Below are positions 1-15,447 of a stretch of 23,082 bases of DNA, piece after piece. The stretch lies in IMG/VR virus record IMGVR_UViG_3300025913_000020; one strand, given 5' to 3'. Source of the stretch: a virus (taxonomy: Duplodnaviria; Heunggongvirae; Uroviricota; Caudoviricetes). The position numbers and the translations under genes were made by a program. The notes beneath the pieces are model-generated. The model saw only the letters and a program-made list of their open reading frames with translations, was not told where the DNA came from and ran no database searches. The first letter of the stretch is position 1, and each line of letters opens with the position of its first letter.

Positions 1-923
1 TCATCGGGATTCTCCGGGGGATGGTCGTGAACAGTGTAGCCGAGCTTCTGGAAAACCAGCTTCGTCTTTTCGTGCCATTTCTCAGGGTCATTCGGATCAC
101 CGTGGACCAGTTCAACCGTGCGCTTGTTTTTGTCGATGTGATAGACCTGGCCGGTGGCCGGAACGACCCACTCAGCTTCTGACCGGAGCGTGCGGAGCAT
201 GTTATTGAACCAGGCCAGCACGTGCGGCGAGGGTTCCCATCCTTCCATCGTCTCCAGGAGGAAATCTGCGAACGGAAAGTTTGCCGATTCTTTTACTTCG
301 CCGGTGTTCTTCTTCACGCTGACTGCTTTATCGTCCCACAGCTCGATCATGTGATGGTCCTTCAGATTGGTGATTTCGAGGTCCGGCAGTTCATTGTCCT
401 TCAGCCATTTCTTGATGGCGTTGACTGACTTCTCATCATCTGCCCGAGCTGTGAAAATTTTGACTTTCTTTCCGTGGCCGACCCACCGGCGAATGCGCGC
501 CACCATTTTTGGCACCGGTTCACCGATCTTCGTGGCTCCCTTGTAACCGGTGTATTTCGCCAGGGTGCCGTCGAGATCGACGCCGATCCAGCCTTCTTCG
601 TCCTCGCTGTCCAGGAGCGCTGACACGATGGATTCCGCAGCTCCAACAATGCTTTGATTCTTGACCGGAAAGTAAGTCAATACCTTTCGACCGGATGTAT
701 CAGAGATGTGCCAGCCTTCACTGTCGAGAACTACAGGCATTCCCAGTCGGTGCGGCCAGGTGAGATGGGATGTGAAATCTTTGGTTTTGAAAATGGCCTC
801 TTTCGGTGTGTTTTCCAGCACCGTTACTTCTTCCGGCGCGCTTGCACGTGGGTTCACGTGGTTCGTCCTGATCCAGCGACTGCCGGGCAGCATTGCTTTC
901 TTGAACTCTGAGGCAAAATTCAT
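1..923 (-). CDS. Multidomain protein with HAD-superfamily (Pnkp 3'-phosphatase-like) domain; 3' end outside window
   Basis: Manual translation from ATG 923 (MNFASEFKKAMLPG...) stays open to the window edge. HAD motifs WIGVDLDGTL, KIFTAR, K and LWDD are present. Absent from the ORF track because there is no stop in the window. Confidence 0.85.
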   Translation of the reverse strand, partial: MNFASEFKKAMLPGSRWIRTNHVNPRASAPEEVTVLENTPKEAIFKTKDFTSHLTWPHRLGMPVVLDSEGWHISDTSGRKVLTYFPVKNQSIVGAAESIVSALLDSEDEEGWIGVDLDGTLAKYTGYKGATKIGEPVPKMVARIRRWVGHGKKVKIFTARADDEKSVNAIKKWLKDNELPDLEITNLKDHHMIELWDDKAVSVKKNTGEVKESANFPFADFLLETMEGWEPSPHVLAWFNNMLRTLRSEAEWVVPATGQVYHIDKNKRTVELVHGDPNDPEKWHEKTKLVFQKLGYTVHDHPPENPD

Positions 924-1813: not shown

Positions 1814-1824
1814 GTAATTAAGGT

Positions 1825-3221: not shown

Positions 3222-3222
3222 G

Positions 3223-3711: not shown

Positions 3712-3717
3712 GTAAAT

Positions 3718-3793
3718 TGGTGCGTTGGGTCGGCAATGATCCGACACGCTTCCGGGTAAGAACCGGGTGCTCTGCCAGTTGAGCTACCAACGC
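3718..3793 (-). tRNA. tRNA-Lys(CUU)
   Basis: Loop UU-CUU-AC, standard D arm, CCA. Confidence 0.9.
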
Positions 3794-3817
3794 AAAAAAG
3801 GTCAATGATTTGATATT

Positions 3818-3874
3818 GTTTTAGGAAAACCCATTGTTTTACTAAATCAGTAAAACAATGGGTTTTCCTAAAAC
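3818..3874. repeat. Perfect 26-bp inverted repeat, 5-nt loop
   Basis: GTTTTAGGAAAACCCATTGTTTTACT-aaatc-AGTAAAACAATGGGTTTTCCTAAAAC. Confidence 0.95.
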
Positions 3875-3883
3875 CAAGAGTCG

Positions 3884-3939
3884 ATTTCACTAAAAAGGGT
3901 TGTTTCACTGCGCAGTAAAACAACCCTTTTTAGTGAAAT
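3884..3939. repeat. 28-bp inverted repeat with one mismatch
   Basis: ATTTCACTAAAAAGGGTTGTTTCACTGC / GCAGTAAAACAACCCTTTTTAGTGAAAT; the mismatch is a G-U pair on the minus strand. Confidence 0.95.
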
Positions 3940-4014
3940 TGGTCGCTCCGGGTGGACACGATCCACCGACCTTCAGCTTATGAAGCTGCTGCTCTCCCTC
4001 TGAGCTACGGAGCG
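3940..4014 (-). tRNA. tRNA with CAU anticodon (elongator Met or Ile2)
   Basis: Loop UU-CAU-AA, paired C1-G72 (not initiator-like), A73, CCA. Confidence 0.88.
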
Positions 4015-4082
4015 TTCGCCCGGCCTTGGTTCGCACCGTGTCTTCTGCACCACCACGCCAAGACAGGGCCGGGTTTGAAAAG

Positions 4083-4158
4083 TGGAGCCTGCTGACGGAA
4101 TTGCACCGTCCATTACCCGGTTACCGACCGGGGCCACCGCTGTCTGTGGGTAGCAGGC
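4083..4158 (-). tRNA. tRNA-Thr(GGU)
   Basis: CCCGG-UC-GGU-AA-CCGGG (C33), CCA. Confidence 0.88.
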
Positions 4159-4564
4159 TTTCGAGAGGTTCGATGACGACATCGGCCTCGACTGTAAAAA
4201 TTGGAATGACCTCCTGGAACTTTGCCGCCTTCAGCATGTCATTGCTGTATCGTGCCTCGACACCGTCAGCGACCGAGATCGTAATGTGCGGAAATTGATT
4301 TTCACTTTTCGCGCCAACCAGGACGGCTTGGGCTTTTTCATCGGAAGCGAATCCGAATACCGGTATCCGCAGGCGCTCACCTTCCAGGCTTTTATAGCGC
4401 TCCAGCGTTTGCGCGTCCGGTTTGAAGGCCATCGTGACGTGGTGTGCGTAAACAACCGCGTGCTGCGGTGGAAAACGGCGCAGCAGCTCTTGGTGGCTTT
4501 CCGGCGTCAGCACGGCACTGATGAATACGCCAGGTTCGTTCAGAGGTAATCGTTCGGTTGACAT
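4121..4564 (-). CDS. 2H phosphoesterase (2',3'-cyclic phosphodiesterase-like)
   Basis: Two HxT motifs, HHVTMAF and PHITISV. Confidence 0.85.
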   Translation of the reverse strand: MSTERLPLNEPGVFISAVLTPESHQELLRRFPPQHAVVYAHHVTMAFKPDAQTLERYKSLEGERLRIPVFGFASDEKAQAVLVGAKSENQFPHITISVADGVEARYSNDMLKAAKFQEVIPIFTVEADVVIEPLESLLPTDSGGPGR

Positions 4565-4776
4565 GGTGGTTCAGGTTGCGGCCAGCCGCCTTCAGGAGGC
4601 ATCGCTGGAGGCCATGCTGGCCCAGGGTAACAGTACCGGCAAAAAGCCCTTTCCTCGTTATATCCAGGAACGTCCTTGCGAACGTAAACAGTGTGGCCGC
4701 AGCTCAGTCCGAACTTTGCCAGAACGACTGTTCCGGTGCCTTCTTCACCGTGTTTGCAGACTATTTTCCTGAACAT
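4540..4776 (-). CDS. Small Cys/His-containing hypothetical protein
   Basis: 78 aa; LSCGH...CRYC; starts just after tRNA-Gly. Confidence 0.6.
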   Translation of the reverse strand: MFRKIVCKHGEEGTGTVVLAKFGLSCGHTVYVRKDVPGYNEERAFCRYCYPGPAWPPAMPPEGGWPQPEPPCQPNDYL

Positions 4777-4779
4777 AAA

Positions 4780-4854
4780 TGGTGCGCCATGTCGGTGCTG
4801 CCCCGACTTATCCTGTTTGGAAGACAGGCTCCTTAGCTGTTGGGATAATGGCGC
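4780..4854 (-). tRNA. tRNA-Gly(UCC)
   Basis: CCUGU-CU-UCC-AA-ACAGG, A73, CCA. Confidence 0.9.
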
Positions 4855-4855
4855 G

Positions 4856-5599
4856 TTAAGCTGGTATTTCGCCGCGTGAGCGATAAACTTGATCCATGTG
4901 GGCTTTGACCTCCTGGTCGTGCGTGGCGAAATCTTTTCTACCGAGCGAAGCCACGATCTCGGGATGCTCGGCCAGATCAGGAGGAAACTTTTCGTCCGGC
5001 ATCTCCATGATCTTTTTGATCAGCGGTTCAATGCGATCCTTGTTGTTCGCATTGTGCTTGATGATGTCTTTGTACGAATCAATCGTGTGCCGCTTGCAGT
5101 TGCCGTGGGAGGCGTTCGGGTCATGCACGCCGAATTCACGCTCGCACATGCCGCAGGACCGCCGCTCCGCTTCGATGACGAAGTTGACGATGCTTTCGAC
5201 GCACTCTGAAAAGTCGCTGCTCAATTTATCTAGCTCAGCGCGTTGAGTATCCAGCTCGCTTCGCCTTCCAGAAATATACTCATTTGCCAGAAAAGCAACA
5301 GCTTTTCTCAGCGTGTTCAAGGCGTCAGGCGGAAGCTTCTCGGTCTCCTGGGCCATCCGGGAAATTTTCACGATGTCGGACAGTGCCCGGCCAGGACCTT
5401 GGCGCAGAATGTTGTTCAGATCGGTTTTGGTGACCTTTCTGAATTGCTGGAGCCAGTTGACCAAGGCGTCGGCTACTGATCTTGGAGATTCCTGTGCGTC
5501 CACGGCGGCCTTGAGAAAGAGGTAGCCTGGACTCCAGATGTGGTCTGGATTCGTTTTGCCGCCCAGGTCGCTCCATTTGACTGCGCCGTATTTCTTCAT
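4856..5599 (-). CDS. Hypothetical protein (virion-like)
   Basis: 247 aa filling the inter-tRNA gap; CGMC...HGNCKRH motif; GTAGTTA upstream. Confidence 0.8.
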   Translation of the reverse strand: MKKYGAVKWSDLGGKTNPDHIWSPGYLFLKAAVDAQESPRSVADALVNWLQQFRKVTKTDLNNILRQGPGRALSDIVKISRMAQETEKLPPDALNTLRKAVAFLANEYISGRRSELDTQRAELDKLSSDFSECVESIVNFVIEAERRSCGMCEREFGVHDPNASHGNCKRHTIDSYKDIIKHNANNKDRIEPLIKKIMEMPDEKFPPDLAEHPEIVASLGRKDFATHDQEVKAHMDQVYRSRGEIPA

Positions 5600-5611
5600 C
5601 GCTTTAACTAC

Positions 5612-5687
5612 TGGAGGCCGGTATCAGAATTGCACTGATGTAATGCGGTTTTGCAGACCGCTGCCTTGCTTCTCGAACCAACCGGCC
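5612..5687 (-). tRNA. tRNA-Cys(GCA)
   Basis: GCGGU-CU-GCA-AA-ACCGC, U73, CCA. Confidence 0.92.
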
Positions 5688-5691
5688 AAAG

Positions 5692-5767
5692 TGGAGCCTC
5701 CGGTCAGAATTGCACTGACCATCTCCAGTTTACGAAACTGGCGCACCGCTGGCTGTGCGTCGGAGGC
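5692..5767 (-). tRNA. tRNA-Thr(CGU)
   Basis: CCAGU-UU-CGU-AA-ACUGG, CCA. Confidence 0.9.
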
Positions 5768-5771
5768 AAAA

Positions 5772-5845
5772 TGGTACCCCGTGACGGAATCTCACCGCCT
5801 CCATCACTTTGTAAGAGTGAGGCACTGATGTTATGCAAACGGGGC
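5772..5845 (-). tRNA. tRNA-Val(UAC)
   Basis: UCACU-CU-UAC-AA-AGUGA, CCA. Confidence 0.9.
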
Positions 5846-5850
5846 TGAAA

Positions 5851-5981
5851 TGGCGGGGATGATAACCGTTAAATATCGGTCCGTAAACGGACAAGGAGGT
5901 TCCAACGACTATTTGAGACTGGATTCGAACCAGCGACCTCCCGCTTTTCAGGCGGGCGCTCTACCGCTGAGCTACATCCCC
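5851..5981 (-). ncRNA. tRNA-Phe(GAA) body with 56-nt Y-RNA-like stem inserted between T arm and 3' acceptor strand
   Basis: Removing 5862-5917 leaves a canonical 75-nt tRNA (GGGGAUG/CAUCCCC-G-CCA, CU-GAA-AA, UUCGAAU). The insert has CUUGUCCGU-uu-ACGGACCGA...GGUUAU. Confidence 0.85.
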
Positions 5982-5987
5982 ATAAAA

Positions 5988-6064
5988 TGGTGCTCCAAAC
6001 AGGACTCGCACCTGTGACCTTTGGCTTCGCAGACCAACGCTCTATCTAACTGAGCTACTGGAGC
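5988..6064 (-). tRNA. tRNA-Arg(GCG)
   Basis: UUGGU-CU-GCG-AA-GCCAA, CCA. Confidence 0.9.
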
Positions 6065-6070
6065 AGAAAG

Positions 6071-6147
6071 TGGTACTCGCGGCTGGAATCGCACCAGCGG
6101 CCTGTTCCTTCGGAGAGAACCGCTCTGTCTAACTGAGCTACGCGAGC
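6071..6147 (-). tRNA. tRNA-Arg(CCG)
   Basis: GUUCU-CU-CCG-AA-GGAAC, CCA. Confidence 0.92.
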
Positions 6148-6249
6148 ATAAAAAACGAGGATTATTTTTCGCGGAGAGATACCTCTCGTTCAACAACTTG
6201 ATGGCTGTTTGCCATCGAAAAACGATGATCTTCGCGAGGATGTTAAAAA

Positions 6250-6327
6250 TGGTATCCGTGACCGGACTTGCACCGGTTAGGCCCTGCTTGAAGGGCAGGA
6301 TGCGCGAGCTGCTTTGCATTCACGGAC
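6250..6327 (-). tRNA. tRNA-Glu(UUC)
   Basis: CCUGC-CC-UUC-AA-GCAGG (C33), CCA. Confidence 0.85.
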
Positions 6328-6373
6328 TGAAAATCTTGTCAGAAAAAGTGGTGTGTTTTTCGGACAAAAAGCT

Positions 6374-6450
6374 TGGCGTCCCTGGCGGGGTACGATCCCG
6401 CAGTCTTCTGGTTGAGAACCAGATATGCTGACCAGTTGCACCACAGGGAC
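6374..6450 (-). tRNA. tRNA-Glu(CUC)
   Basis: UCUGG-UU-CUC-AA-CCAGA, G73, CCA. Confidence 0.92.
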
Positions 6451-6466
6451 GCGCCGAGGGTTAAGC

Positions 6467-6530
6467 TCACGGGCAAGATGGTTAGCGTGGGGTTTTCGAT
6501 GAATGATAACCCATGCTGTTCGGTCCGTGA
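6467..6530 (-). ncRNA. Minimal Y RNA-like gene (no tRNA domain)
   Basis: UCACGGAC-C-GAA...GGUUAUC...CUUGCCCGUGA; same bulged stem as the YrlA-like copies. Confidence 0.7.
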
Positions 6531-6533
6531 AAT

Positions 6534-6596
6534 TGGCGGGGCCGCCTGTCGATTCAGGTCACTGAGGACTCAGGCGGCTGGCCGGGCCGCAGCCCC
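6534..6596 (-). ncRNA. 63-nt miniature tRNA-like RNA with CCA and no anticodon loop
   Basis: 7-bp acceptor GGGGCUG/CGGCCCC-G-CCA plus three short hairpins. Confidence 0.6.
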
Positions 6597-6603
6597 ATAA
6601 AAG

Positions 6604-6680
6604 TGGTCCCAGGGGTCGGTATCGCACCGACGTACTCCGGTTTTTCAGACCGGCGCTAATACTATCTCAGCTACCCTGGG
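6604..6680 (-). tRNA. tRNA-Phe(GAA)
   Basis: CCGGU-CU-GAA-AA-ACCGG, A73, CCA. Confidence 0.92.
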
Positions 6681-6734
6681 ATTTCGAGGCATCCTCCTTG
6701 CGAACCAGTTTGATGAAAAGCCTCGTGTCGAAGA

Positions 6735-6808
6735 TGGTCCCCTATCGTGGTAACGCTCCACGGTCAACCGCTTATCAAGCGGACGCTCTGCTTTTGAGCT
6801 AATAGGGG
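6735..6808 (-). tRNA. tRNA-Ile(GAU)
   Basis: Loop UU-GAU-AA, CCA. Confidence 0.9.
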
Positions 6809-6809
6809 G

Positions 6810-7181
6810 TCAAGGTGGAAAATCCTGGCGGAGGCGCTTTTTCATGGCACCGGCCAGATTCGCGAACGGCAGATCGGCCAGCCACGGAAATTGCTTCGCG
6901 TCTGGGTGGTCTGGATTCGTTCGTTCGACCGTGGCCATGCTGTTCCAGGCTCCGGCCTTTTTTACTCTGAGCGCTTCGTCGTAAGTCGGACACATGACGT
7001 AAACGTCGCTCTCGTGAAAATGGATTCGGTCGGCGCTGATGCCCATGTCGATCAGAGCGGAGACAACATCGTCGTGAACGCCGCCGAGTTTGTCAGGAAT
7101 GCCGCTGACATCTTTCATGTCGTCATCCTCAGACTCTGTGACGAATGCGATGATGTGCTTAATTGAGTCGGTGCTTTGCAT
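6810..7181 (-). CDS. Hypothetical protein
   Basis: Start trimmed to MQSTDSIKHII (ATG 7181) to avoid a long overlap with the upstream gene; contains HESDVYV. Confidence 0.75.
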   Translation of the reverse strand: MQSTDSIKHIIAFVTESEDDDMKDVSGIPDKLGGVHDDVVSALIDMGISADRIHFHESDVYVMCPTYDEALRVKKAGAWNSMATVERTNPDHPDAKQFPWLADLPFANLAGAMKKRLRQDFPP

Positions 7182-7692
7182 CTTTCGATCTGAAAGCGAT
7201 GGCGGCGCGCCGCGTGGTTTCTTTTTCCTGGTCAGTAAAACTGCGCCAGGCTGCGAGAGCGTCTTCAAAAGGTTCGTCAATGCCAGCCATCTTTTGTAGT
7301 TGCTGGATCAGCTCCACACCTTCCCGCTCCTGCTTTGTAGGCGGTCGTGCTTTGGGCGGGCGCGGCGGAGGGTCTTCAGGAATATCCCGAGGCGCTTCCT
7401 GCCATGCCGTGAATTTCACTCGTTTGACGTAGTCCTCATCAAAATCTCGCTTTCCCTTGCGATACTCTGCGTTCAAGCGGTTAGCGACCCACTGGGCAAC
7501 GTAGCGATCCTTGGCACCTGGGTTCAGCCCGACAGAGACCTCTACGAAAATCCGGGTGTTAATGCCAGGATCAGGCGATGAATTGACTGTGACGTAAATG
7601 GCATGGCCCGCATGGTAAATGTGAAAGGGCCAGTCCTTGGCTTCACTTAAGATCGCCTGGACGATGTTGGCCGCATCTTCTTTGATGTTCAC
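7159..7692 (-). CDS. Hypothetical protein (virion-like)
   Basis: 177 aa, GTG start, GTAGTTA 5 nt upstream. Confidence 0.8.
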   Translation of the reverse strand: MNIKEDAANIVQAILSEAKDWPFHIYHAGHAIYVTVNSSPDPGINTRIFVEVSVGLNPGAKDRYVAQWVANRLNAEYRKGKRDFDEDYVKRVKFTAWQEAPRDIPEDPPPRPPKARPPTKQEREGVELIQQLQKMAGIDEPFEDALAAWRSFTDQEKETTRRAAIAFRSKDAKHRLN

Positions 7693-7835
7693 GCCTTTAA
7701 CTACAGCGTAAACATTTTATAGTTCAGGGGGATATACCCCTCTATGGCCGGTTTCGTTTTTATGCGAGAAATAGGAGTTGGGGTTTAATGGTCGGCTCTG
7801 ACCTCGTACTGAACACAGACCTGAAACTAAAATCT

Positions 7836-8210
7836 ATGAAAAAACACGAAACTACCGCTGTTGCGGACAAACCGGAACATGCAACTACCGCTGTTGTGGA
7901 TAAAACGGTCAGCTCGTTTGAAGCTGACCTCACTGCCATTGACAAGCAGATTGCTGATCTGAAAGCGAAACACCAGGCTCTGAATCCGAAAATCACTGCG
8001 GCCCTGGTGGAAGCTCAAAAAGCGTCGGCCACGCTCCGTGACAAAATCAATCCCCCGAATTCACCCACGCTCGCTGACTTGCAGGAACCGACACGGGCAC
8101 TGAATCATCAGATTCAGATCGTTCCTGTTCCGACGAAGGCTGAATCAAAAAAGGCTTTGGAAGACATCCAGGCCGCTTCGTTGGCTCTCCTGGGTGAAGT
8201 TGGCGAATAA
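7836..8210 (+). CDS. Coiled-coil hypothetical protein
   Basis: Likely start MKKHETT (ATG 7836); internal repeat HETTAVADK/HATTAVVDK; followed by a hairpin at about 8224-8252. Confidence 0.75.
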   Translation: MKKHETTAVADKPEHATTAVVDKTVSSFEADLTAIDKQIADLKAKHQALNPKITAALVEAQKASATLRDKINPPNSPTLADLQEPTRALNHQIQIVPVPTKAESKKALEDIQAASLALLGEVGE

Positions 8211-8259
8211 ACGTGTGGTTCTTGCTCGCTCCGTTGATTCAGCGGAGCGGGTCTAAAAT

Positions 8260-8348
8260 TGGCGGATGGTGCAGGAGTTCCACCTGCGCTGCCCGTGGGG
8301 CAGTCCACCGCTTTCGAGGCGGGAGCCTTGGTACTCGGCCAACCATCC
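8260..8348 (-). tRNA. tRNA-Ser(CGA)
   Basis: Loop CU-CGA-AA, long variable arm, G73, CCA. Confidence 0.9.
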
Positions 8349-8354
8349 AAAAAC

Positions 8355-8486
8355 TGACGGGCAAGTATCGCAGAGGATGTTTTAGCGCTTTACCGTTAAG
8401 CTATCCCGGCACAAAGCCGGGACTGGGATTCGAACCCAGAACTCCTCATTTTCCAGTGAGATAACCCTCCAACATTCGGCCCGTCA
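8355..8486 (-). ncRNA. YrlA-like Y RNA
   Basis: End-pairing stem UGACGGGC-C-GAAUG / CUUGCCCGUCA enclosing T arm (GGUUCGAAUCC), loop-closed acceptor-like stem and D arm in permuted order. Confidence 0.85.
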
Positions 8487-8491
8487 AAAGA

Positions 8492-8631
8492 TTTGGTGGA
8501 CAAGTAGCGGCGACGGTGTTTTAGGTGCTCTACCGTTAAGCTACTCTGCGGTCTGTGGTCGCAGAGCAAGGATTCGAACCTCGACAACCCGCTTTATGAT
8601 GCGATAACCATCATCCAGTCGGCCCACCAAA
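8492..8631 (-). ncRNA. YrlA-like Y RNA
   Basis: GGUGGGC-C-GAC / CUUGUCCACC stem; T arm, closed acceptor stem, D arm (UAGCUUAACGGUAGAGC). Confidence 0.85.
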
Positions 8632-8719
8632 ATTAAAAAGCAACCTGCGCTGGTCATCCGCTCGCTACCCATGTCGATTTTACGACCCAAAGCCTCGTCC
8701 GATGCGCGCAGGCTGTAAA

Positions 8720-8809
8720 TGGCGGATGGTGCAAGCTTCGCTCTTGCGCAGGTGTGACCCTGATCTCTGCCTTCCAAGCAGGTGCCTTGCTGGACTCGGC
8801 CAACCATCC
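8720..8809 (-). tRNA. tRNA-Ser(GGA)
   Basis: Loop UU-GGA-AG, long variable arm, G73, CCA. Confidence 0.9.
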
Positions 8810-8825
8810 AAAAAAGTTTACAAAG

Positions 8826-8913
8826 TGGCGGAGGGCACAGGAGTTCAACCTGTTCTGGTTTGACCCAGGCGTCGAGTTTCAAGCTCGCCCCGTTAGCGTT
8901 CCGGCAGCCCTCC
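8826..8913 (-). tRNA. tRNA-Ser(UGA)
   Basis: Loop CU-UGA-AA, long variable arm, G73, CCA. Confidence 0.88.
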
Positions 8914-8956
8914 ACGTGGGGTATTGACAATAAATGGTTAGCTCGTAGTTAATCTG

Positions 8957-9418
8957 ATGGCAACCGCAGAAATTAAAGAAACGCAGCATTCTGAAACACT
9001 CGCGTATCGGCTGTTGGAAAGATTTTCGTCCGAACGCGAGCAGGTTGAACGGTACACCGCTGTCGCTGAATTTTGTCCGATTCCTGCGTTTGTTGTAGCC
9101 CACGACGGCAGGACCGTCGTTTATGTCAACAAAGCTTATTACGACATGATGGGCGTCACACCGGAAGAAGGAAAGAATCTCCAGTGGAAAAAATCCATTC
9201 ACCCTGATGACATAAACCGCGTGGTCTGGGAATGGGAGCACATGATCGAGACCGAGCAGCCGCTTCATTCCGAACGCCGGTACATTGATCACACCGGCCA
9301 CGAATTCAGCGCAACGCTGGTAGCGCGCCGGGTCGAGAACAACGGTTTTGTCGGCTTCATCGTGCCTCACGAAATCAGCAGAGTGGTGCCCTCGGCAGGA
9401 TTCTCACCTGCAACCTGA
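8957..9418 (+). CDS. Stand-alone PAS-domain protein
   Basis: YVNKAYYDMMGVTPEE...WKKSIHPDD...ERRYIDHTG is a typical PAS/PAC signature. Confidence 0.88.
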   Translation: MATAEIKETQHSETLAYRLLERFSSEREQVERYTAVAEFCPIPAFVVAHDGRTVVYVNKAYYDMMGVTPEEGKNLQWKKSIHPDDINRVVWEWEHMIETEQPLHSERRYIDHTGHEFSATLVARRVENNGFVGFIVPHEISRVVPSAGFSPAT

Positions 9419-9459
9419 GTTTTAGGAAAACCCCGCGCTGTAATTTGCGCCACGAGGGC
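9384..9459 (-). tRNA. tRNA-Arg(CCU)
   Basis: GGGUU-UU-CCU-AA-AACUC, CCA. Confidence 0.88.
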
Positions 9460-9463
9460 AAAG

Positions 9464-9539
9464 TGGTGCTCTCGGCTGGAATCTCACCAGCGACATCCCG
9501 CTTAGAAGGCAGGCACTCTGATAACTGAGCTACGAGAGC
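9464..9539 (-). tRNA. tRNA-Arg(UCU)
   Basis: CCUGC-CU-UCU-AA-GCGGG, CCA. Confidence 0.92.
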
Positions 9540-9545
9540 AGAAAA

Positions 9546-9620
9546 TGGCTCCAGGAGTTGGACTCGCACCAACACTAAACCGCTTAACAGGCGGACGTGC
9601 TACTTTAACACTACCCTGGA
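9546..9620 (-). tRNA. tRNA-Asn(GUU)
   Basis: Loop CU-GUU-AA, U1-A72, G73, CCA. Confidence 0.92.
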
Positions 9621-9695
9621 TGGCAGCCCCGACTGGTTATGCTCCAATGCCTTTCGAGTCAGAGTCGAACGCGCTGCTGATTACGCTACGGGGCC
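9621..9695 (-). tRNA. tRNA-Gln(CUG)
   Basis: UUCGA-CU-CUG-AC-UCGAA, weak 1-72 pair, G73; zero spacer to tRNA-Asn. Confidence 0.9.
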
Positions 9696-9704
9696 AATAA
9701 TAAA

Positions 9705-9780
9705 TGGTCGGGATGGTCGGGTACGATCCGACAACCTCCGGGTCCCAAACCCGGCGCGCTGCCAATTACGCCACATCCCG
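9705..9780 (-). tRNA. tRNA-Pro(UGG)
   Basis: CCGGG-UU-UGG-GA-CCCGG, C1-G72, CCA. Confidence 0.93.
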
Positions 9781-9817
9781 CTTGTCATTCAAAAATAAAA
9801 TGTTTACTTTTCTGATC

Positions 9818-10048
9818 ATGAACTACGTTGCGCTCGCGGTCGCCTTTTTGATGATCACATTTCTCGGTCTCGACGCCACTTTGATCGTGATGATGTGGGG
9901 CGTCTTTGCCTGTATCGGTCTCGGCCTGATCGGCGAATTTATCATCACGCCGTGGCGCGACGAAATGCGCGAGAGAAAAAAGGGAAGCCCTTGCGTGCGC
10001 GACTCCATATCCGTGGCCCCGGAATCTGGCCGAGCTGATAAGCTCTAG
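9818..10048 (+). CDS. Small membrane protein
   Basis: MNYVALAVAFLMITFLG...; two hydrophobic stretches; start could be 9800. Confidence 0.55.
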   Translation: MNYVALAVAFLMITFLGLDATLIVMMWGVFACIGLGLIGEFIITPWRDEMRERKKGSPCVRDSISVAPESGRADKL

Positions 10049-10128
10049 TTCGCTGTGCATTACAAGTGGTCTGGACTCGCCGTCCTCCCACCGGCCCGGA
10101 TAAACACCGGGGGACTTCTCATAACAAA

Positions 10129-10205
10129 TGGTCAGTGTGGTGGGCTTCGATCCCACAGCCTCGTGTACCCGAAACACGCGCTCTACCAGGTTGAGCTACA
10201 CACTG
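10129..10205 (-). tRNA. tRNA-Pro(CGG)
   Basis: CGUGU-UU-CGG-GU-ACACG, CCA. Confidence 0.92.
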
Positions 10206-10213
10206 TTGAAAAA

Positions 10214-10288
10214 TGGTCGGGACGGTGAGGATTGCACTCACGATCTCCAGCACCCCATGCTGGCGCGTTACTGCTTCGCTACGCCCCG
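10214..10288 (-). tRNA. tRNA-Pro(GGG)
   Basis: CCAGC-AU-GGG-GU-GCUGG, CCA. Confidence 0.92.
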
Positions 10289-10291
10289 GAG

Positions 10292-10423
10292 CTGATGAGC
10301 AAGTGGCAGGAAGGGAGATACACCGATCAAAGATCGGCTGCCTTACCAATCGGCGGTCATCTCCACGAAAGAGATGACAGGATTCGAACCTGTTATAGAT
10401 AACCCTCACTTACGGCTCATCAG
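10292..10423 (-). ncRNA. YrlA-like Y RNA
   Basis: CUGAUGAGC-C-GUAAG / CUUGCUCAUCAG stem, GGUUAUC, T arm GGUUCGAAUCC, closed acceptor stem, D arm and one extra hairpin. Confidence 0.8.
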
Positions 10424-10426
10424 AAA

Positions 10427-10503
10427 TGGCGGGACTGACCGGACTCGCACCGGCTTACTTGGTCGTGACAGGACCCTGATTCGACTCCTTCATCTTCAGC
10501 CCC
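10427..10503 (-). tRNA. tRNA-Asp(GUC)
   Basis: Loop CU-GUC-AC, G73, CCA. Confidence 0.9.
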
Positions 10504-10509
10504 ATAAAT

Positions 10510-10591
10510 TGGCGTGAGGGGATGGACTTGAACCACCGACCTCCCGATGCCGGTTAAGGCACCAGGTGCTCTTTCACTGAGCTACCCCCAC
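10510..10591 (-). tRNA. Atypical tRNA with 9-bp anticodon stem; isotype undetermined
   Basis: CCUGGUGCC-UUAACC-GGCAUCGGG; normal D arm, UUCAAGU T-loop, G73, CCA. Confidence 0.7.
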
Positions 10592-10596
10592 AAAAT

Positions 10597-10682
10597 TGGT
10601 GCGCCAGGCAAGACTTGCACTTGCGAAGCCCGAAGGCAAGGGATTTACAGTCCCTCGGTTTTGCTGCTCCCACCACTGGCGC
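10597..10682 (-). tRNA. tRNA-Tyr(GUA)
   Basis: AGGGA-CU-GUA-AA-UCCCU, long variable arm, CCA. Confidence 0.92.
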
Positions 10683-10784
10683 GTCCCGCCTCCATCCAAG
10701 CACTGCGGCATTGTCTCCGTTACTTCGAGTGTGCTCTCTGGGAGACTTCAACCGTTTTTCGGACGGGGCGTGAGTATCTAAAAC

Positions 10785-11222
10785 ATGAATATCACTGAAA
10801 ATACCGGTATCGCGAATCTGGCTGAGGTTGAAGGAAATATCCTTCGTGGCGGCCAGCCGAATGCCGCAGGTTGGGACTTTCTTAAAACCTCCGGTATTAC
10901 GCGTGTGATAAAATTGAATTTGGATGGCGATTCACCGGATAAGCCCGGCGACGGCACCGAGCTGGTGAAGTGTCCCATTGATCTCGCGGATCAGATTATT
11001 TTCAGACCGAACTACGATCTGGTCATGCAGGCCGTCAACGCCATCCAGCCGGGCACCTTCATTCACTGCACGCACGGCCAGGATCGCACGGGTCTCGTGG
11101 TGGGTTGCTACCGCGTGTTGAAGCAGGGTTGGACGAAAGATGCGGCTTGGGCGGAAATGCTCCAGCACGGGTTTCATACTGAACTGCTTGGCCTCACTCT
11201 CTTTTGGGAGTGGGCGATCTGA
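10785..11222 (+). CDS. Tyrosine/dual-specificity phosphatase (CX5R)
   Basis: FIHCTHGQDRTG P-loop; N-terminal RGGQP. Confidence 0.92.
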   Translation: MNITENTGIANLAEVEGNILRGGQPNAAGWDFLKTSGITRVIKLNLDGDSPDKPGDGTELVKCPIDLADQIIFRPNYDLVMQAVNAIQPGTFIHCTHGQDRTGLVVGCYRVLKQGWTKDAAWAEMLQHGFHTELLGLTLFWEWAI

Positions 11223-11227
11223 AAGCG

Positions 11228-11306
11228 GCGGGCAAGTTGGCGCACTGGGTCGTTTCGGAATGGCTTAAGAGGCCACTGATGGCGATAATCCAGGGCATCG
11301 GCCCGC
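11228..11306 (-). ncRNA. Short Y RNA-like gene (no tRNA domain)
   Basis: GCGGGC-C-GAUG...GAUUAUC...CUUGCCCGC. Confidence 0.7.
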
Positions 11307-11311
11307 TAAAT

Positions 11312-11387
11312 TGGCACGGCGGGTCGGCAATGATCCGACAACCTTCGGTTTTGGAGACCGGTGCTCTGCCAGTTGAGCTACCGCCGT
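11312..11387 (-). tRNA. tRNA-Trp(CCA)
   Basis: Loop CU-CCA-AA, G73, CCA. Confidence 0.92.
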
Positions 11388-11571
11388 ATTGAAATCGCTC
11401 CCGTTGGGGACTTTTACCCCGATGCGTCGTTGTGTCCACGGGAATTCACGAACACCACGCGTTCTGCCCGACGAGGCATCTGCTCGTCGGAATAAAAATT
11501 GTTGACGAAAAAGTTTTAGGCCCCAAAGTGGTGCCGCCAACAGATTCTCAGCCGCGATCCAGGGAGCGCGG

Positions 11572-12030
11572 CTAACATTTTTCCCACAGGTTGCAGCAGC
11601 CGCCGCCTTCGATCGTACCTTCGACTTTGCCGCATCCAGCCTTCTCGTGAATGTCGGTGTCGGGATTGTCTTTTTCTTTGCCGCCCCAGTATTCGCAGAT
11701 CGCGCACTTGGTAGGACCTTCCTGCACGTATCCAGCCGAGGTCTTCGGCAGCAGCTTCAGCGGAGTGCCGCCGTTTTTGAAAATCGAGTCGCCACCCAGG
11801 AATGCTGCGCAGACGCCGTGTTTTGCATTGCAGGCAGCGGGGGAGGTCAAGAGGCATTCACTGCGATTGGCGTTGAAAAAGATGCAGGCCCCGCAGTGCG
11901 CGCCTTTTTCGTCGCCGATCTGTTCGGGTGTCAGGTAAACCGCAGCAGCCTGTTCGACTCTGCCGCCTTTACTTTCCTCAGCTTCTTCGCCTTCGCGAAG
12001 GCCGAGAATCCGTTTCAAAGTGGTATCCAC
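11572..12030 (-). CDS. Protein with two HiPIP-like 4-Cys repeats
   Basis: CGACIFF...C...GVCAAF and CAICEYW...CGKVEGTIEGGGCCNLW. Confidence 0.7.
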   Translation of the reverse strand: MDTTLKRILGLREGEEAEESKGGRVEQAAAVYLTPEQIGDEKGAHCGACIFFNANRSECLLTSPAACNAKHGVCAAFLGGDSIFKNGGTPLKLLPKTSAGYVQEGPTKCAICEYWGGKEKDNPDTDIHEKAGCGKVEGTIEGGGCCNLWEKC

Positions 12031-12043
12031 GCCGTAAATACGC

Positions 12044-12289
12044 GGTGACTCAGGCAGGGTTGTGCCTGCTTACTGTTTCAGTTTTTCGGCACCCGGAAGC
12101 AAAGTTGATCCTGGCGCTGCTTTGATCCAGGGACTCGTCACGTAGCATCAAATGCCGGACGTTAAGCTTATTTGCGTCGGCTGGCAGATAGTCAATGCCG
12201 CACTCAAGGACGCCGGACCTACTCCAGTTCCTCGTACGACTGTCACTGGAAACCGAGAGGGATTACCGTCCCCCTATCGCTGAGTCACC
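12044..12289 (-). ncRNA. Unassigned 246-nt structured RNA
   Basis: Perfect 10-bp terminal stem GGUGACUCAG/CUGAGUCACC with several internal hairpins; no credible ORF; strand inferred from the array. Confidence 0.55.
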
Positions 12290-12432
12290 AGTGGAAAGAA
12301 CTGAACGAGGCTTTGGGGCGCAGTGTATTCTGCCAAAGCGTTGATGTGGAGTTCATCGTCAGGCTGTGGGAACGCCTAGCCAATACAGGGGACTCCTTTT
12401 CCATCCGTGACCGTGTTTCAGGCTCGCTCAAA

Positions 12433-12558
12433 TGGTGGACCTTGCGGAAATCGCATCCGCTCGGCGCGCCCCCGTAGGGAAGCGCGCCTTTCTCTGGCCG
12501 GTCGCAAGCGGAGTGATTACCGCTGCCTTGATCGGTTTTATGCGCCGGATGAAGGCCC
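12433..12558 (-). ncRNA. 126-nt tRNA-like RNA with Ala identity elements and no anticodon
   Basis: GGGCCUU/AAGGUCC-A-CCA (G3-U70, A73), T arm GCGGA-UGCGAUU-UCCGC, long arm capped by C(UACG)G. Confidence 0.75.
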
Positions 12559-12567
12559 GAAAGGGAG

Positions 12568-12906
12568 GCGTGCGGCGGGGGTCGAACCCGCTCCCCCAGA
12601 TAAGTGTCATCGTCCGGGATTTAGTGCGGCTTCCCTTGGCCAACCAGCCCTGTGACACAAGAACTGGCCAGTTGTAGCCGCCACAGCCATACGAAGGTGC
12701 TGCTGCCAGCCTTTTGGGCCAGCGTCTTCTTCCCGCTCACGCCCAGACCAGGTCTCAGCTCACCTGGGCGCTTATGGACTTGAAGCAACAGTTATCCCCA
12801 CCGGACACCTGGTCTAAGACCGCCAGGCGCTATGTGCCGAGGCCCCGTGTCCCTGCGCAGAAACACAAGGCAAATGCCGTACCGGCTCAGAAGGATAACC
12901 CGCAGC
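12568..12906 (-). ncRNA. Unassigned ~340-nt multi-domain RNA with 3' T arm and possible pseudoknots
   Basis: Several closed domains, T arm GCGGG-UUCGACC-CCCGC, two loop-loop complementarities. Confidence 0.6.
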
Positions 12907-12911
12907 ATAAA

Positions 12912-12990
12912 TGGTGGAGAGCACGGGAATTGCACCCGTCTGAAATTCTCATTGCAAGTGAGACGACCACGCTAAGCAGTCCCGCTCCCC
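12912..12990 (-). tRNA. tRNA-Ala(UGC)
   Basis: UCUCA-CU-UGC-AA-UGAGA, G3-U70, A73, CCA. Confidence 0.92.
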
Positions 12991-13872
12991 TTAAAGTGTC
13001 GCGATGAACGCGTCGATCAAGTCTGATGAATCGGCCACGCATTTCGCTGCCGCTGCTTTCAAGTTGGCGATGTCATCGTCAGATGCACCGTCAATCGGCA
13101 GTGGCTGGTCGAGACGTGGAGAAATGCGAACATAACCGCCTTTCGTCATCAGTCGTTTCAAAATGTAATCCGGCAGATCGTCGTTGGCGTCGAACAGCAG
13201 GCTCAGTGTTTCCAGGCCGGTGTGGAGCAGACCGCTGTCCACGAGTTTGTCCGCTGAAAATTTGCTCTGGGCCTGGCCGCATCCAACCGAAAAGATGTTG
13301 AGTGATTCGCCGGGCCAGTCACGGATGGCTTCAGCCGCCGCGCACGCTGCCGGATTGTTGGCGACGTTGCCGCCATCCCAGAGTTGTTTATTGTCCAGGA
13401 TGAAGGCCGGGAAGTAGGTCTGCGCTGCTGACGTGGCTCGGGATACCTGCCAGAGCGCGTAATCGTCATCCATCACCGGCGACTTGAAAAAGTAAGGATC
13501 GTAGGAGACCAGGTCGAACGCCGGAACGAGCAGAAACTTTTTCAGATCGGAGAGACGGGTGTTGCCCAGGCGCGCCTTGAGGCAGTCTTCGATCTTGTTT
13601 GATCCGTAGCGGGCTTCGAAAATACCGTCGTGTCCAAAAATACGTTCGTGACCGAAGATCGTCGGACCATCCACTGTGAAAAACTCCAGGGCTTCAGTCG
13701 CTGACTTGCCGGAAGCGAGCAAGCAGGCCAGGATGCCGCCGATGGAGGTTCCGGCGAACATATCGAACATGTCGAAGCAAGCTTTGCCGGTGCGCTTTTC
13801 CAGCTCAACCAGGACGGAGCAGGGGATGTAACCCTTCATGCCGCCGCCATCAATGGACAGGATGTTCTTCAT
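12991..13872 (-). CDS. Patatin-like phospholipase
   Basis: DGGGMKG, GTSIG nucleophile elbow, ATSAA..YFP, DGG. Confidence 0.95.
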   Translation of the reverse strand: MKNILSIDGGGMKGYIPCSVLVELEKRTGKACFDMFDMFAGTSIGGILACLLASGKSATEALEFFTVDGPTIFGHERIFGHDGIFEARYGSNKIEDCLKARLGNTRLSDLKKFLLVPAFDLVSYDPYFFKSPVMDDDYALWQVSRATSAAQTYFPAFILDNKQLWDGGNVANNPAACAAAEAIRDWPGESLNIFSVGCGQAQSKFSADKLVDSGLLHTGLETLSLLFDANDDLPDYILKRLMTKGGYVRISPRLDQPLPIDGASDDDIANLKAAAAKCVADSSDLIDAFIATL

Positions 13873-13876
13873 GTCC

Positions 13877-13883
13877 TATTTAC
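13877..13883 (-). promoter_or_regulatory. GTAnnTA motif (representative of 10 copies), putative phage late promoter
   Basis: GTAAATA 4 nt before ATG; other copies are listed in findings. Confidence 0.6.
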
Positions 13884-13888
13884 GAAAG

Positions 13889-13962
13889 TGGTGCGGGCGG
13901 ACGGTAATGCTCCGTCGTCTCAGCGTTGGCAACGCCGTGTTCTGCTATTAAACCACGCCCGC
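13889..13962 (-). tRNA. tRNA-Gly(GCC)
   Basis: CGGCG-UU-GCC-AA-CGCUG, A73, CCA. Confidence 0.92.
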
Positions 13963-13967
13963 AGAAA

Positions 13968-14321
13968 TTAAGGAACGATATGGAGCATCATCGGCGCTCC
14001 AGGGTATGCAAATGAGATTGTGTCCGACAGATCGCTGTGGAGGCCGGTTGTCGGGTCCTGGGCGTCCACGTTGCACCAGTAAGTCATTCCACTTACCAGG
14101 TTGCTGACGACCGCATTGGTATCGGTGACCGGAACAATCTGGATGGCCCCGTTGGTGCCGGTGCCTGCCGGATTGTTCGTGTAAATGTAAACGTTGTACG
14201 TGAGTACCGGAAAATCGTCATTCGTGGAGGAGTTCCATTGGACATGGACGCTCTTGGCCATGGCGACGATGGCGGTGATTAGGATCGCTCCTATAAGCAT
14301 TGTTTTGCGTAATGTCTTCAT
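13968..14321 (-). CDS. Secreted fibronectin type III-like protein
   Basis: Signal peptide, then VQWNSS...YNVY...VVSNLVSGMTYWCNVDA...SDLS. Confidence 0.8.
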   Translation of the reverse strand: MKTLRKTMLIGAILITAIVAMAKSVHVQWNSSTNDDFPVLTYNVYIYTNNPAGTGTNGAIQIVPVTDTNAVVSNLVSGMTYWCNVDAQDPTTGLHSDLSDTISFAYPGAPMMLHIVP

Positions 14322-14343
14322 GCCCTACATACGCAGTCTGAAA

Positions 14344-14420
14344 TGGGGTGTCGTACGGGTTTCGATCCCGTTCTGCAAGTTTCACAAACTTGGGTGCTAA
14401 GCCATCACACTCACGACACC
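14344..14420 (-). tRNA. tRNA-His(GUG)
   Basis: CAAGU-UU-GUG-AA-ACUUG, G-1:C73, CCA. Confidence 0.92.
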
Positions 14421-14501
14421 ATTCACCAGGGAGCGAGGCTCGACCTGGGATGGAAATTGTAAGGGTACTGCGCCACGGTAAACATGGCCGCAGTACCCAT
14501 T

Positions 14502-14645
14502 TCAACAAAGAACGTACACCATTCCTCCGGTCTTTTTACGGACCTTGCCCACATGTATTGCTGGCGTCTTCGGCTTCCCTCGCCTGGACACCTTCGCGGT
14601 GGTCTTCACCAGATTATCGGCCTGGCTCTCGGCGCTTGCGCGCAT
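14502..14645 (-). CDS. Possible small basic protein (47 aa)
   Basis: MRASAESQADNLVKTTAKVSRRGKPKTPAIHVGKVRKKTGGMVYVLC; first ORF after the attenuator terminator. Confidence 0.4.
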   Translation of the reverse strand: MRASAESQADNLVKTTAKVSRRGKPKTPAIHVGKVRKKTGGMVYVLC

Positions 14646-14658
14646 AAATTCAAATCCT

Positions 14659-14705
14659 AAAAACGAAAAACCCTGCTATCTCATCGAGGTAGCAGGGTTT
14701 TTCGT
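14659..14705 (-). terminator. Intrinsic terminator (attenuator)
   Basis: CCCUGCUACCUC-gau-GAGAUAGCAGGG followed by UUUUUCGUUUUU. Confidence 0.85.
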
Positions 14706-14721
14706 GAAATTTCCTCGTGCC

Positions 14722-14868
14722 TTATCCTGCTACCTCCGATTTTGGTTCGAGTGTGCTACGCACGCTAAAGCACATCGTACCGACGCGATTCCACCCTTGA
14801 ATCGGGGCAGAATACTGCGCCCTATCCAAGCTAGGTTTCGCTGACGACGTTATGTGACTTAATTTCAT
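14722..14868 (-). CDS. Putative attenuator leader peptide (48 aa, all 20 amino acids)
   Basis: MKLSHITSSAKPSLDRAQYSAPIQGWNRVGTMCFSVRSTLEPKSEVAG; its last codons are complementary to the terminator 5' arm. Confidence 0.75.
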   Translation of the reverse strand: MKLSHITSSAKPSLDRAQYSAPIQGWNRVGTMCFSVRSTLEPKSEVAG

Positions 14869-14878
14869 TTTCGAGGCC

Positions 14879-14906
14879 ACTCTAAATCTTTTTTGTTTAC
14901 AGTCAA
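14879..14906 (-). promoter_or_regulatory. Sigma70-like promoter for the leader and RNA array
   Basis: TTGACT-16 nt-TAGAGT, 10 nt upstream of the leader ATG. Confidence 0.6.
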
Positions 14907-14925
14907 TAGTTTTCTCAAAAATTCT

Positions 14926-15447
14926 TCATTTATTTTTGTGATGGTCCTTAAAGTGGCTGCTACGCTTGATGATTTCGACTGCGTAGTCAAAGGCAGCTTG
15001 CAGCCCTTTTTCCATAAAGCGCTTACCGATTTCGACTTCAGCCTGCGCTCCTGTGGTAAAACCAGCCGACGCGAGGTTCTGGTTGGTGGCCAGATTCGTT
15101 GCACACAAAAAGTAAACGGACGAGAGCGCGATCTCCTTAGCAACAACACGCGCCGCCAGGTTTACGATGGCATCTCCCAGGTGTTCGAGCTGGCGCATTT
15201 CGATAGGTGACCTCACCTTGGTCGAAGGGACTTTCGGTAGGCGGCTTAATGGTGCCGCAGGTTCTTGCTTGCGCTGAAGGATAGCGGACATGCTTTGAGG
15301 AACGCAGCGCCAGTCGATTACGTTTCGCTTGCCGTTTTCACTGGGCATGAAAACGGGAGTGAAGCCGAAGATTCTTCCGATCTCGTGCCACTCGTCACGA
15401 CTGATCATCAGCTTGAGCTGTTTGCGTGTGATCGTGTCAGGGGTCAT
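14926..15447 (-). CDS. RNase III-like (mini-III-sized) domain protein
   Basis: RQLEHLGDAIVNL matches the RNase III signature; TNQNLA and AEVEIG; no dsRBD. Confidence 0.75.
   Translation of the reverse strand: MTPDTITRKQLKLMISRDEWHEIGRIFGFTPVFMPSENGKRNVIDWRCVPQSMSAILQRKQEPAAPLSRLPKVPSTKVRSPIEMRQLEHLGDAIVNLAARVVAKEIALSSVYFLCATNLATNQNLASAGFTTGAQAEVEIGKRFMEKGLQAAFDYAVEIIKRSSHFKDHHKNK

Follow-up and report, generated by a model that had tools for sequence, protein, structure and literature searches.

A conserved leader reading frame with a terminator/antiterminator switch ahead of a phage tRNA array: a putative attenuator responding to slow decoding

The DNA described here is a stretch of 23,082 nucleotides, referred to as the window, which corresponds to bases 30713–53794 of a 143-kb IMG/VR virus record (IMGVR_UViG_3300025913_000020; Caudoviricetes; 55% G+C; CheckV completeness 83). 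Unless stated otherwise, coordinates are positions in this window. On the minus strand, between 14906 and 14659, lies a compact element made up of a promoter-like sequence, a short leader open reading frame (ORF) and an intrinsic terminator. It is followed by a structured RNA, denoted X, and by a long array of tRNA genes. We considered the possibility that this element is an attenuator, in which translation of the leader ORF decides whether transcription continues towards the tRNAs, and compared it with related loci from other viral and metagenomic sequences.

The sigma-70-like promoter (14879–14906) consists of TTGACT (14906–14901) and TAGAGT (14884–14879), separated by 16 nt and matching the consensus at 9 of 12 positions; the transcription start is predicted from this pattern. 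The distance from the end of the −10 hexamer to the leader ATG is 10 nt, and the predicted 5′ untranslated region (UTR) is therefore only ≈3–4 nt, making the ORF near-leaderless. The ORF itself (14722–14868) runs from the ATG at 14868 through 48 sense codons to a TAA at 14724–14722, and encodes the peptide MKLSHITSSAKPSLDRAQYSAPIQGWNRVGTMCFSVRSTLEPKSEVAG. All 20 amino acids are present, and 40 of the 48 codons are distinct. C, D, F, H, N, W and Y occur once each (among them His5, Asp15, Tyr19, Trp26, Cys33 and Phe34), and no amino acid occurs in a run. The codons ATA, AGG and TTA, all used in the leader, are indeed rare in this phage, as had been proposed (2.6, 3.3 and 2.4 per thousand, respectively, in its 55 long ORFs), and the mean ln relative synonymous codon usage of the leader falls at the 1.5th percentile of 48-codon gene windows, i.e., towards rarer codons. 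A GAACC sequence (14744–14748) encodes Glu-Pro at 8 and 7 codons before the stop.

The terminator (14659–14705) begins 16 nt past the stop codon. It is formed by the stem-loop ACGAAAAACCCTGCTACCTCGATGAGATAGCAGGGTTTTTCGT (14705–14663) and a T-run that extends to 14659, with a predicted stability of −23.7 kcal/mol and a single unpaired C/A position in the upper stem; a simple terminator scanner missed it. Within the last four sense codons of the leader, the sequence GAGGTAGCAGG (14736–14726) is a perfect 11-nt complement of CCTGCTACCTC (14696–14686) in the 5′ arm of the terminator. A complement of this length was reached in none of 3000 shuffles, and we refer to GAGGTAGCAGG as the antiterminator strand. 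The promoter, the ORF, the terminator with its mismatch and the complementary end of the ORF all lie where the preliminary description of this DNA, which was made from the sequence alone, had placed them.

Two further structures are predicted in the leader RNA. The mid-ORF hairpin P1 (in the region 14788–14822) pairs GGGCGCAG (14822–14815) with CTGCCCC (14810–14804) and carries the Tyr codon UAU in its loop; an alternative hairpin, P1′, pairs ATTCTGCCC (14813–14805) with GGGTGGAAT (14796–14788). Helix E is formed by TGTGCTTTA (14766–14774, codons 32–35) and TAAGGCACG (14716–14724), the latter beginning at the stop codon (P = 0.01 relative to shuffles).

The codon diversity of the leader is high by the standards of its own genome: among 93,699 stop-free 48-codon windows, only two contain at least 40 distinct codons, in agreement with the diversity noted previously. 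Under shuffled or uniform-codon nulls, the probability of at least 40 distinct codons is 0.002–0.003, and that of at least 40 distinct codons together with all 20 amino acids is 0.0002–0.0004. After multiple testing, this single-genome signal is only moderate.

Related loci (denoted by L-numbers) were gathered by two routes. Loci based on the family-A DNA polymerase (PolA) upstream of the element yielded three syntenic relatives with tRNA arrays, L010 and L013/L014, in which the leader region can be aligned, with the ORF preserved and the pairing covarying. A search with the motif GAGAGCCNGGCCGNTAATC, the conserved block directly after the terminator, matched 4 stretches from viral and 111 from metagenomic sequences. 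A simple filter retained 32 of the 109 distinct ones. By eye, L046, L049 and L114 were dropped as unrelated, and L115 and L117 were added; the near-duplicates L107, L117 and L127 and the truncated L099 were also dropped. The other motif-matching stretches, judged by eye, had neither terminator nor leader and were chance-like, mostly coding sequence. The final set comprised 27 leaders including the window; most counts below refer to 26, with L085 added for the analysis of the amino-acid set. GTDB genomes scanned with the X motif gave six matches, all of them chance occurrences in unrelated sequence with no leader, and loci gathered via the DNA ligase gene were too distant for synteny.

A promoter pattern of the form TTGNNN-16..18-TANNNT is present upstream of the leader in 15 of the 20 related loci that have at least 80 nt of upstream sequence, compared to 9% of shuffles. 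A near-identical contig differs from the window at five positions in 14560–14926, one of them a synonymous change in the ORF (14740, AAA>AAG) and four in the flanks. Similarity to this contig stops at ≈14926, just upstream of the leader promoter; thus, the promoter–leader unit behaves as a module.

The reading frame of the leader is conserved throughout the family. Frame 0 is free of stop codons in all 26 leaders, whereas frames +1 and +2 contain 78 and 79 stops, or about three per sequence in each, and are open in only one and none of the leaders, respectively. The ORFs range from 41 to 54 codons and start with ATG or GTG, and the Tyr codon in the loop, the GAA-CCN and the stop codon stay in one frame, since the length changes between these anchors are multiples of three throughout. 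In an alignment of the whole leaders (A2), the GAA of GAACC is invariant and the CC nearly so; correspondingly, E41 is invariant and P42 nearly invariant in the peptide alignment (A4). On the strength of these sequence comparisons, the leader ORF is real as a maintained reading frame. Besides the window, L032 and L097 have a near-leaderless ORF, and others have a 5′ UTR of ≈25–60 nt. In one clade, with L026, L080, L029, L087, L098 and L019, a covarying hairpin (e.g., GGGGTTTGGTGCCCC) is found in the 5′ UTR, 40–60 nt upstream of the start. No Pfam family matches the leader peptide. A search with the leader peptide alignment among 5.8 billion predicted proteins gave 98 candidates, none at E ≤ 0.01; the leader ORF thus has no entry among predicted proteins, which does not show its absence.

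Conservation extends to the complete set of amino acids in the peptide. All 20 amino acids are present in 23 of the 27 leaders, corresponding to 20 of 24 distinct peptides, within only 41–54 codons. The four incomplete leaders are without one amino acid each: L115 (I), L119 (F), L105 (H) and L064 (D). The peptides fall into nine clusters below 60% identity, mutually 13–55% identical, and eight of the nine representatives are complete. A peptide would be complete by chance with a probability of 0.7–6.8% under nulls of uniform codons or pooled composition; since the clusters have common descent, a simple product of these probabilities would not be valid. C, D, F, H, W and Y are mostly single-copy across the leaders. 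Counted from the stop codon, His is located at −44, −24, −14, −36, −16 or −27 in different clades, Phe at −15, −28, −43 or −11, and Asp at −34, −22, −36, −17 or −11. To judge from these sequences, the shifting of single His, Phe and Asp residues is turnover with the amino-acid set maintained. In 20 of the 23 complete leaders, the set of 20 is already complete within codons 1 to n−7, and in many cases it is the conserved Glu codon at −8 that completes it.

Codon diversity exceeded a uniform-codon null in 26 of 26 leaders (z = 1.1–4.4), as well as a null in which the peptide was kept and the synonymous codons were redrawn (26 of 26, mean z = 1.49). It follows that an amino acid recurring in a leader tends to be encoded by different codons. 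A “descent-aware” null, in which every residue shared with any other representative was kept, was over-conservative, retaining 33–44 of the 41–54 residues, and was uninformative.

The switch is conserved as well. Since insertions and deletions put the helices out of register (RNAalifold found only four pairs in the MAFFT alignment A2, and an alignment of the 3′ part, A5, shifts by one base between clades), helices were counted sequence by sequence. Every relative has a terminator at the same place, and the distance between the stop codon and the end of the antiterminator strand is at most 1 nt in 22 of 26 leaders (range −6 to +6). Across the family, this strand is an ungapped complement of 7–12 nt located 22–41 nt upstream of its partner in the terminator 5′ arm; the complement is better than in shuffles at P ≤ 0.01 in 12 of 14 representatives, and L019 and L040 have bulged complements. 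Antiterminator strands score higher with their own terminators (mean 9.8) than with those of other clades (6.3). At least eight covarying antiterminator/terminator versions exist, among them GGTAGCAGG/CCTGCTACC, GGTAAGCAGG/CCTGCTTACC, GGTAAGCGGG/CCCGCTTACC, GGCAGGTGGG/CCCACTTGCC, GGAGCAGTGG/CCACTGCTCC and GGAGCAGCAGG/CCTGCTGCTCC. The predicted stabilities of the two alternatives are alike (−14 to −27 kcal/mol for the antiterminator, −14 to −29 kcal/mol for the terminator). A hairpin with UAU or UAC in or beside the loop is seen in most relatives, with differing stem sequences, and helix E scores at least 6.5 in 19 of the 26, in eight sequence versions.

RNA X (14455–14650, minus strand) follows directly after the terminator. 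It is a conserved structured RNA without assigned class, comprising a hairpin (14643–14632), an invariant core CGAGAGCCAGGCCGATAATCTGG (14631–14609), a 3′ core GGTGT..GTTCTTTG (14520–14500) and a terminal hairpin (14498–14463). The alignment of X (A3; window, L026:1481–1675, L013:16337–16535 and 17 other loci) shows compensatory pairs, the invariant blocks CGAGAGCC.GGCCG.TAATC.GG and GGTGT.TGTTC, a covarying hairpin and a CCAC/GUGG helix. Across the family, X is 130–190 nt long and precedes tRNA genes, and no Rfam family matches it in the seven loci searched. We do not regard a 47-codon ORF at 14645–14502 as a gene, since it overlaps X and is not conserved in frame, the L019 sequence stopping after 13 codons. 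X may serve the tRNA operon as a second module, for regulation or for processing.

The tRNA array occupies 942–14419 of the window on the minus strand, where ARAGORN finds 26 tRNAs, and extends past the window start. In the genome, it amounts to 30 tRNAs over ≈21 kb downstream of the leader, rather than the ≈13 kb previously estimated. At a relaxed threshold, the array contains tRNAs for all 20 amino acids. The first tRNA after the leader is tRNA-His (14419–14344; Rfam match at 14347–14419), and in the family, tRNA-Gly(GCC) is often the first after X. The window, L010 and L013/L014 all have same-strand tRNAs downstream of the element, as do 17 of the 25 further loci that were scanned; most of the remainder are stretches too short to tell.

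We conclude that the element is a conserved leader ORF with a terminator/antiterminator switch heading a phage tRNA array, and that it is most likely a ribosome-mediated attenuator that would sense slow decoding of any codon, a reading we hold with some, though by no means full, confidence. RNA polymerase would transcribe the leader with a ribosome following. If the ribosome has reached the last 6–8 codons or the stop before the 3′ arm of the terminator is made, it would cover the antiterminator strand, the terminator would fold and transcription would end. If the ribosome is absent, or delayed at an earlier codon, the antiterminator strand would pair first with the terminator 5′ arm, and the polymerase would read on into X and the tRNA genes. 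Because every amino acid is represented in the sensing part of the ORF, by codons that are diverse and in part rare, shortage of or damage to any tRNA species would raise tRNA transcription. Once decoding is restored, the switch would shut again, making the tRNA supply demand-driven.

This sequence of events was modelled by folding six representative leaders with a ribosome that covers the mRNA to 12 nt beyond the A-site codon, ignoring pseudoknots. In all six, the antiterminator formed before the 3′ arm was present (P = 0.93–1.0) when the A-site was at codons 1 to ≈n−8 or when there was no ribosome, and it was abolished with the ribosome on the last 6–8 codons or on the stop. The attenuator proposed in the preliminary description is strongly supported in its core, in that the ORF, the stop, the covarying pairing and the complete set are conserved in 26 loci and the folding model agrees with it; helices P1 and E had not been foreseen, and the Y-RNA and repair content that had been assigned to the operon is weakly founded (see below).

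A broader proposal may be made more tentatively: in phages with full tRNA sets, the leader would be a minimal “pangram” ORF, selected to contain every amino acid at least once and in diverse, partly rare codons, such that any decoding deficit, whether from starvation, decay of host tRNAs or anticodon nucleases, switches on the phage's own tRNA supply, with X as the second module. Such an element would constitute a universal decoding-capacity sensor with negative feedback, and X would add a further level of control over the 21-kb array, such as a cis-acting signal for antitermination or for processing. Any connection with anticodon nucleases is speculative.

Several observations weigh against an attenuator that senses all codons. 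Because the relatives were all retrieved with the X motif and are related among themselves, the family counts are not independent. Of 1,830 short ORF candidates of 38–60 codons in this genome, 41 (2.2%) hold all 20 amino acids, and the promoter-like pattern by itself is at chance level (one site found against 1.8 expected in 4 kb), so that the window alone would not carry the claim. No clear Shine–Dalgarno sequence was seen when the printed upstream sequences of the leaders were inspected by eye, without a formal test. A look through sequencing runs turned up no RNA run containing this stretch, and the four DNA runs compared are contigs in which no starts or ends are visible. In the folding model, the terminator wins at equilibrium without a ribosome in five of the six leaders (P = 0.74–0.99). 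Read-through must therefore rest on kinetic trapping, which lies outside that model. The terminal hairpin of X is terminator-like and located just before the first tRNA, and read-through of the first terminator thus need not reach the tRNAs. Finally, the leader RNA is strongly structured (z = −5.2). Its covarying helices P1 and E explain part of the peptide conservation, and the simple model has no need of them. They could make sensing dependent on position, or they may be pause signals; that P1 is an RNA polymerase pause site is a guess.

Helix E is also the basis of the main rival reading, in which it serves as an anti-antiterminator, like the 1:2 structure of trp. In such a position-specific attenuator, E would sequester the antiterminator region if the leader is untranslated, only the few codons near the 5′ strand of E would matter, and read-through could come only from stalls near codons 28–38; the complete amino-acid set would then have another cause. 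The layout does echo regions 1:2, 2:3 and 3:4 of classical attenuators, and a full-length match to Thr_leader, weak as it is, points the same way. Helix E starts 0–3 nt after the stop in the 19 leaders that have it, its eight versions covary, and the minimum-free-energy fold of the full-length leader is E plus terminator. However, the antiterminator strand itself is not a partner of E, which is weak or missing in the other 7 of 26 leaders and is predicted to lose to the antiterminator of 9–12 bp once the terminator 5′ arm exists (P = 0.94–1.0 with the leader free). Nor would a trp-type switch account for the retention of single His, Phe and Asp residues, whose places shift along the entire ORF. 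We regard it as unlikely.

Given that the frame, start and stop are conserved, the product might instead be a functional small protein of ≈45 residues, ahead of a regulated or ordinary terminator, with the pairing tuning its own expression or stability and the array having its own promoters. Some residues are conserved (Tyr, Trp, Cys, Arg-(Ser)-Thr and Glu-Pro), and the terminator-like end of X ahead of the tRNAs would fit separate promoters. This explanation is made improbable by the low peptide identity between clades and by the fact that the single invariant column coincides with the conserved RNA motif, as well as by the negative Pfam and protein searches described above. Moreover, a folded 45-mer needs no exactly-one copy of rare amino acids at shifting positions, and the stop codon is tied to the antiterminator strand.

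Conversely, the element might be a structured RNA that codes for no protein and whose open frame is incidental. It would then be a leader of the riboswitch kind, binding a ligand, a protein or a tRNA, or else a small RNA that ends in a terminator of its own. The strong predicted structure, the covarying hairpins inside the “ORF”, the lack of a visible Shine–Dalgarno sequence and the conservation of the loop UAU and the GAACC motif at the RNA level would all be in keeping with this. Against it stand the absence of in-frame stops in all 26 leaders, the length changes in multiples of three and the maintained set of 20 amino acids; in addition, the Pro codon differs in its third position (CCA/CCC/CCG) without loss of GAACC, and no Rfam family, T-box included, reaches threshold. 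We give this possibility little credence. Chance co-occurrence of a spurious ORF and a terminator, which the frequency of complete short ORFs and the promoter pattern might suggest, is in effect refuted by the conservation of every feature, with covariation, in 26 related loci from different metagenomes.

The genes upstream of the element are also on the minus strand. PolA (23024–20043) is followed by two proteins without assigned function, an NAD-dependent DNA ligase (17459–15444) and a 173-residue protein without assigned function (15447–14926), which lies just upstream of the leader region and has no relatives among viral contigs. Near-identical contigs from other soil metagenomes diverge from the window at 14920–14926, which marks a mosaic boundary of the promoter–leader–X–tRNA block, and the 173-residue gene is not common to them. 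Isolated phages gave no DNA match to the leader region, nor to the leader and X of a relative, and their best identities were 36% for the ligase and 30% for PolA. For these reasons, no cultured relative or host can be named.

Within the array, a suppressor-type tRNA with the anticodon UUA, which would read UAA, is located at 10510–10591 (minus strand), and a second tRNA, with the anticodon CUA and called “Pyl” by ARAGORN, lies elsewhere in the genome (C1:82640–82714, minus strand). UAA is the leader's own stop codon, and the early genes read normally under table 11; stop codons might be recoded late in infection. Protein genes are scattered through the array, at 12991–13872, 13968–14321 and 4121–4564 (all minus strand); one protein in the array is a patatin-like phospholipase (E = 3e-25), and one small protein gives a weak fibronectin-III hint. 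Of the repair genes that had been proposed for the operon, there is a single weak Pfam hint, to tRNA_lig_CPD (tRNA-ligase cyclic phosphodiesterase), in the third of these proteins, of 147 residues (E = 2.3e-4, below the cut-off). The proposed Y RNAs likewise come down to one YrlA-like match in the window, at 8355–8482 on the minus strand (34.8 bits relative to a gathering score of 69). Sub-threshold YrlA matches are also found in the arrays of two relatives (L097:2263–2390, 49.8 bits; L040:2556–2657, 28.7 bits), and Y-RNA-like genes in these arrays are thus possible candidates on sequence similarity. Besides the tRNAs, nothing in an Rfam scan of the window reached the gathering score.

The reason for tRNA genes in phages has long been debated. 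Phage tRNAs have been proposed to compensate for codon usage, to replace a decaying host pool, or to provide escape from anticodon nucleases (PMC10264068, PMC11464382). If the attenuator reading is correct, these phages at the least would produce tRNAs according to demand, responding to decoding capacity itself. This would favour the views of phage tRNAs as replacement or as an escape from defence, and would make them testable with an element of 210 nt. The leader would also serve as a small, naturally occurring reporter of translation elongation stress in general, and would exemplify clearly how selection can act on what a peptide is composed of, namely its complete amino-acid set, rather than on its sequence.

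The element has the structural features that define leader-peptide attenuators in general: a short ORF upstream of an intrinsic terminator, seen in the window and 26 relatives, and a mutually exclusive antiterminator that uses the terminator 5′ arm. As in the classical attenuators (trpL, hisL, thrL, leuL, pheL and ilv), the position of the ribosome on the short ORF would decide which structure folds. Unlike these, the phage leader has no run of regulatory codons and precedes X and tRNA genes rather than biosynthesis genes. Its antiterminator strand is the very end of the ORF, and there is no clear 1:2 structure that sequesters it. In 14300–15000, Rfam gave, besides tRNA-His, only chance-level hits and the full-length match to Thr_leader (RF00506; 33.1 bits, E = 1e-4, below the gathering score of 55), which is carried mainly by the terminator.

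In the erm/cat and vmlR leaders, which control resistance genes, drug-dependent arrest occurs at particular peptide motifs. There, too, a ribosome stalled on a short leader ORF leads to read-through of a terminator, as we propose for the phage leader; no arrest motif was identified in the latter. In the pyrBI and pyrE attenuators of enterobacteria, the ORF extends across the terminator, and termination is prevented by a ribosome that follows closely. The outcome likewise hangs on the distance between ribosome and polymerase over an ORF of ≈44 codons, whereas the phage ORF ends ahead of the terminator, where a closely following ribosome would promote termination. T-box riboswitches also sense tRNA status through a choice between antiterminator and terminator, while sensing in the phage leader would go through translation. 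The T-box model (RF00230) had no match at E ≤ 10 in 14300–15000, and a stretch resembling GGGUGG..CGCG in the window, considered as a possible T-box, was discarded, being absent as a conserved feature in L010/L014 and having no model match. Our literature searches brought up no account of this kind of control in phages or for tRNA genes.

Among tested systems, the upstream ORF (uORF) attenuator of whiB7 in mycobacteria (Poulton et al., 2023 preprint, PMC10274678) is the closest analogue. It, too, combines a leader ORF with an antiterminator/terminator choice, and stalling in the uORF leads to read-through; the uORF's amino-acid make-up decides which shortages are sensed. The M. smegmatis uORF contains 19 of the 20 amino acids, and depletion linked to 18 of the 20 activates it; Trp-less and His-less variants lose the respective signal. 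A claim that no known leader samples many amino acids would thus be too strong. Loss of the whiB7 start codon results in higher basal expression and read-through (PMC10274678), matching the read-through default predicted for the phage leader without a ribosome. By composition, the phage leaders belong with this type, with 20 of 20 amino acids in the window and complete sets in 23 of 27 members of the family; the comparison concerns how the two would work. whiB7 itself is a bacterial stress regulator whose uORF is enriched in alanine and variable and incomplete in composition, that of M. tuberculosis being without several amino acids. The phage element, in contrast, is located upstream of a structured RNA and an array of tRNA genes, and completeness within 41–54 codons is itself conserved. 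Relative to whiB7, the novelty lies in this setting, in a phage and ahead of a full tRNA array, and in the conserved completeness of the set.

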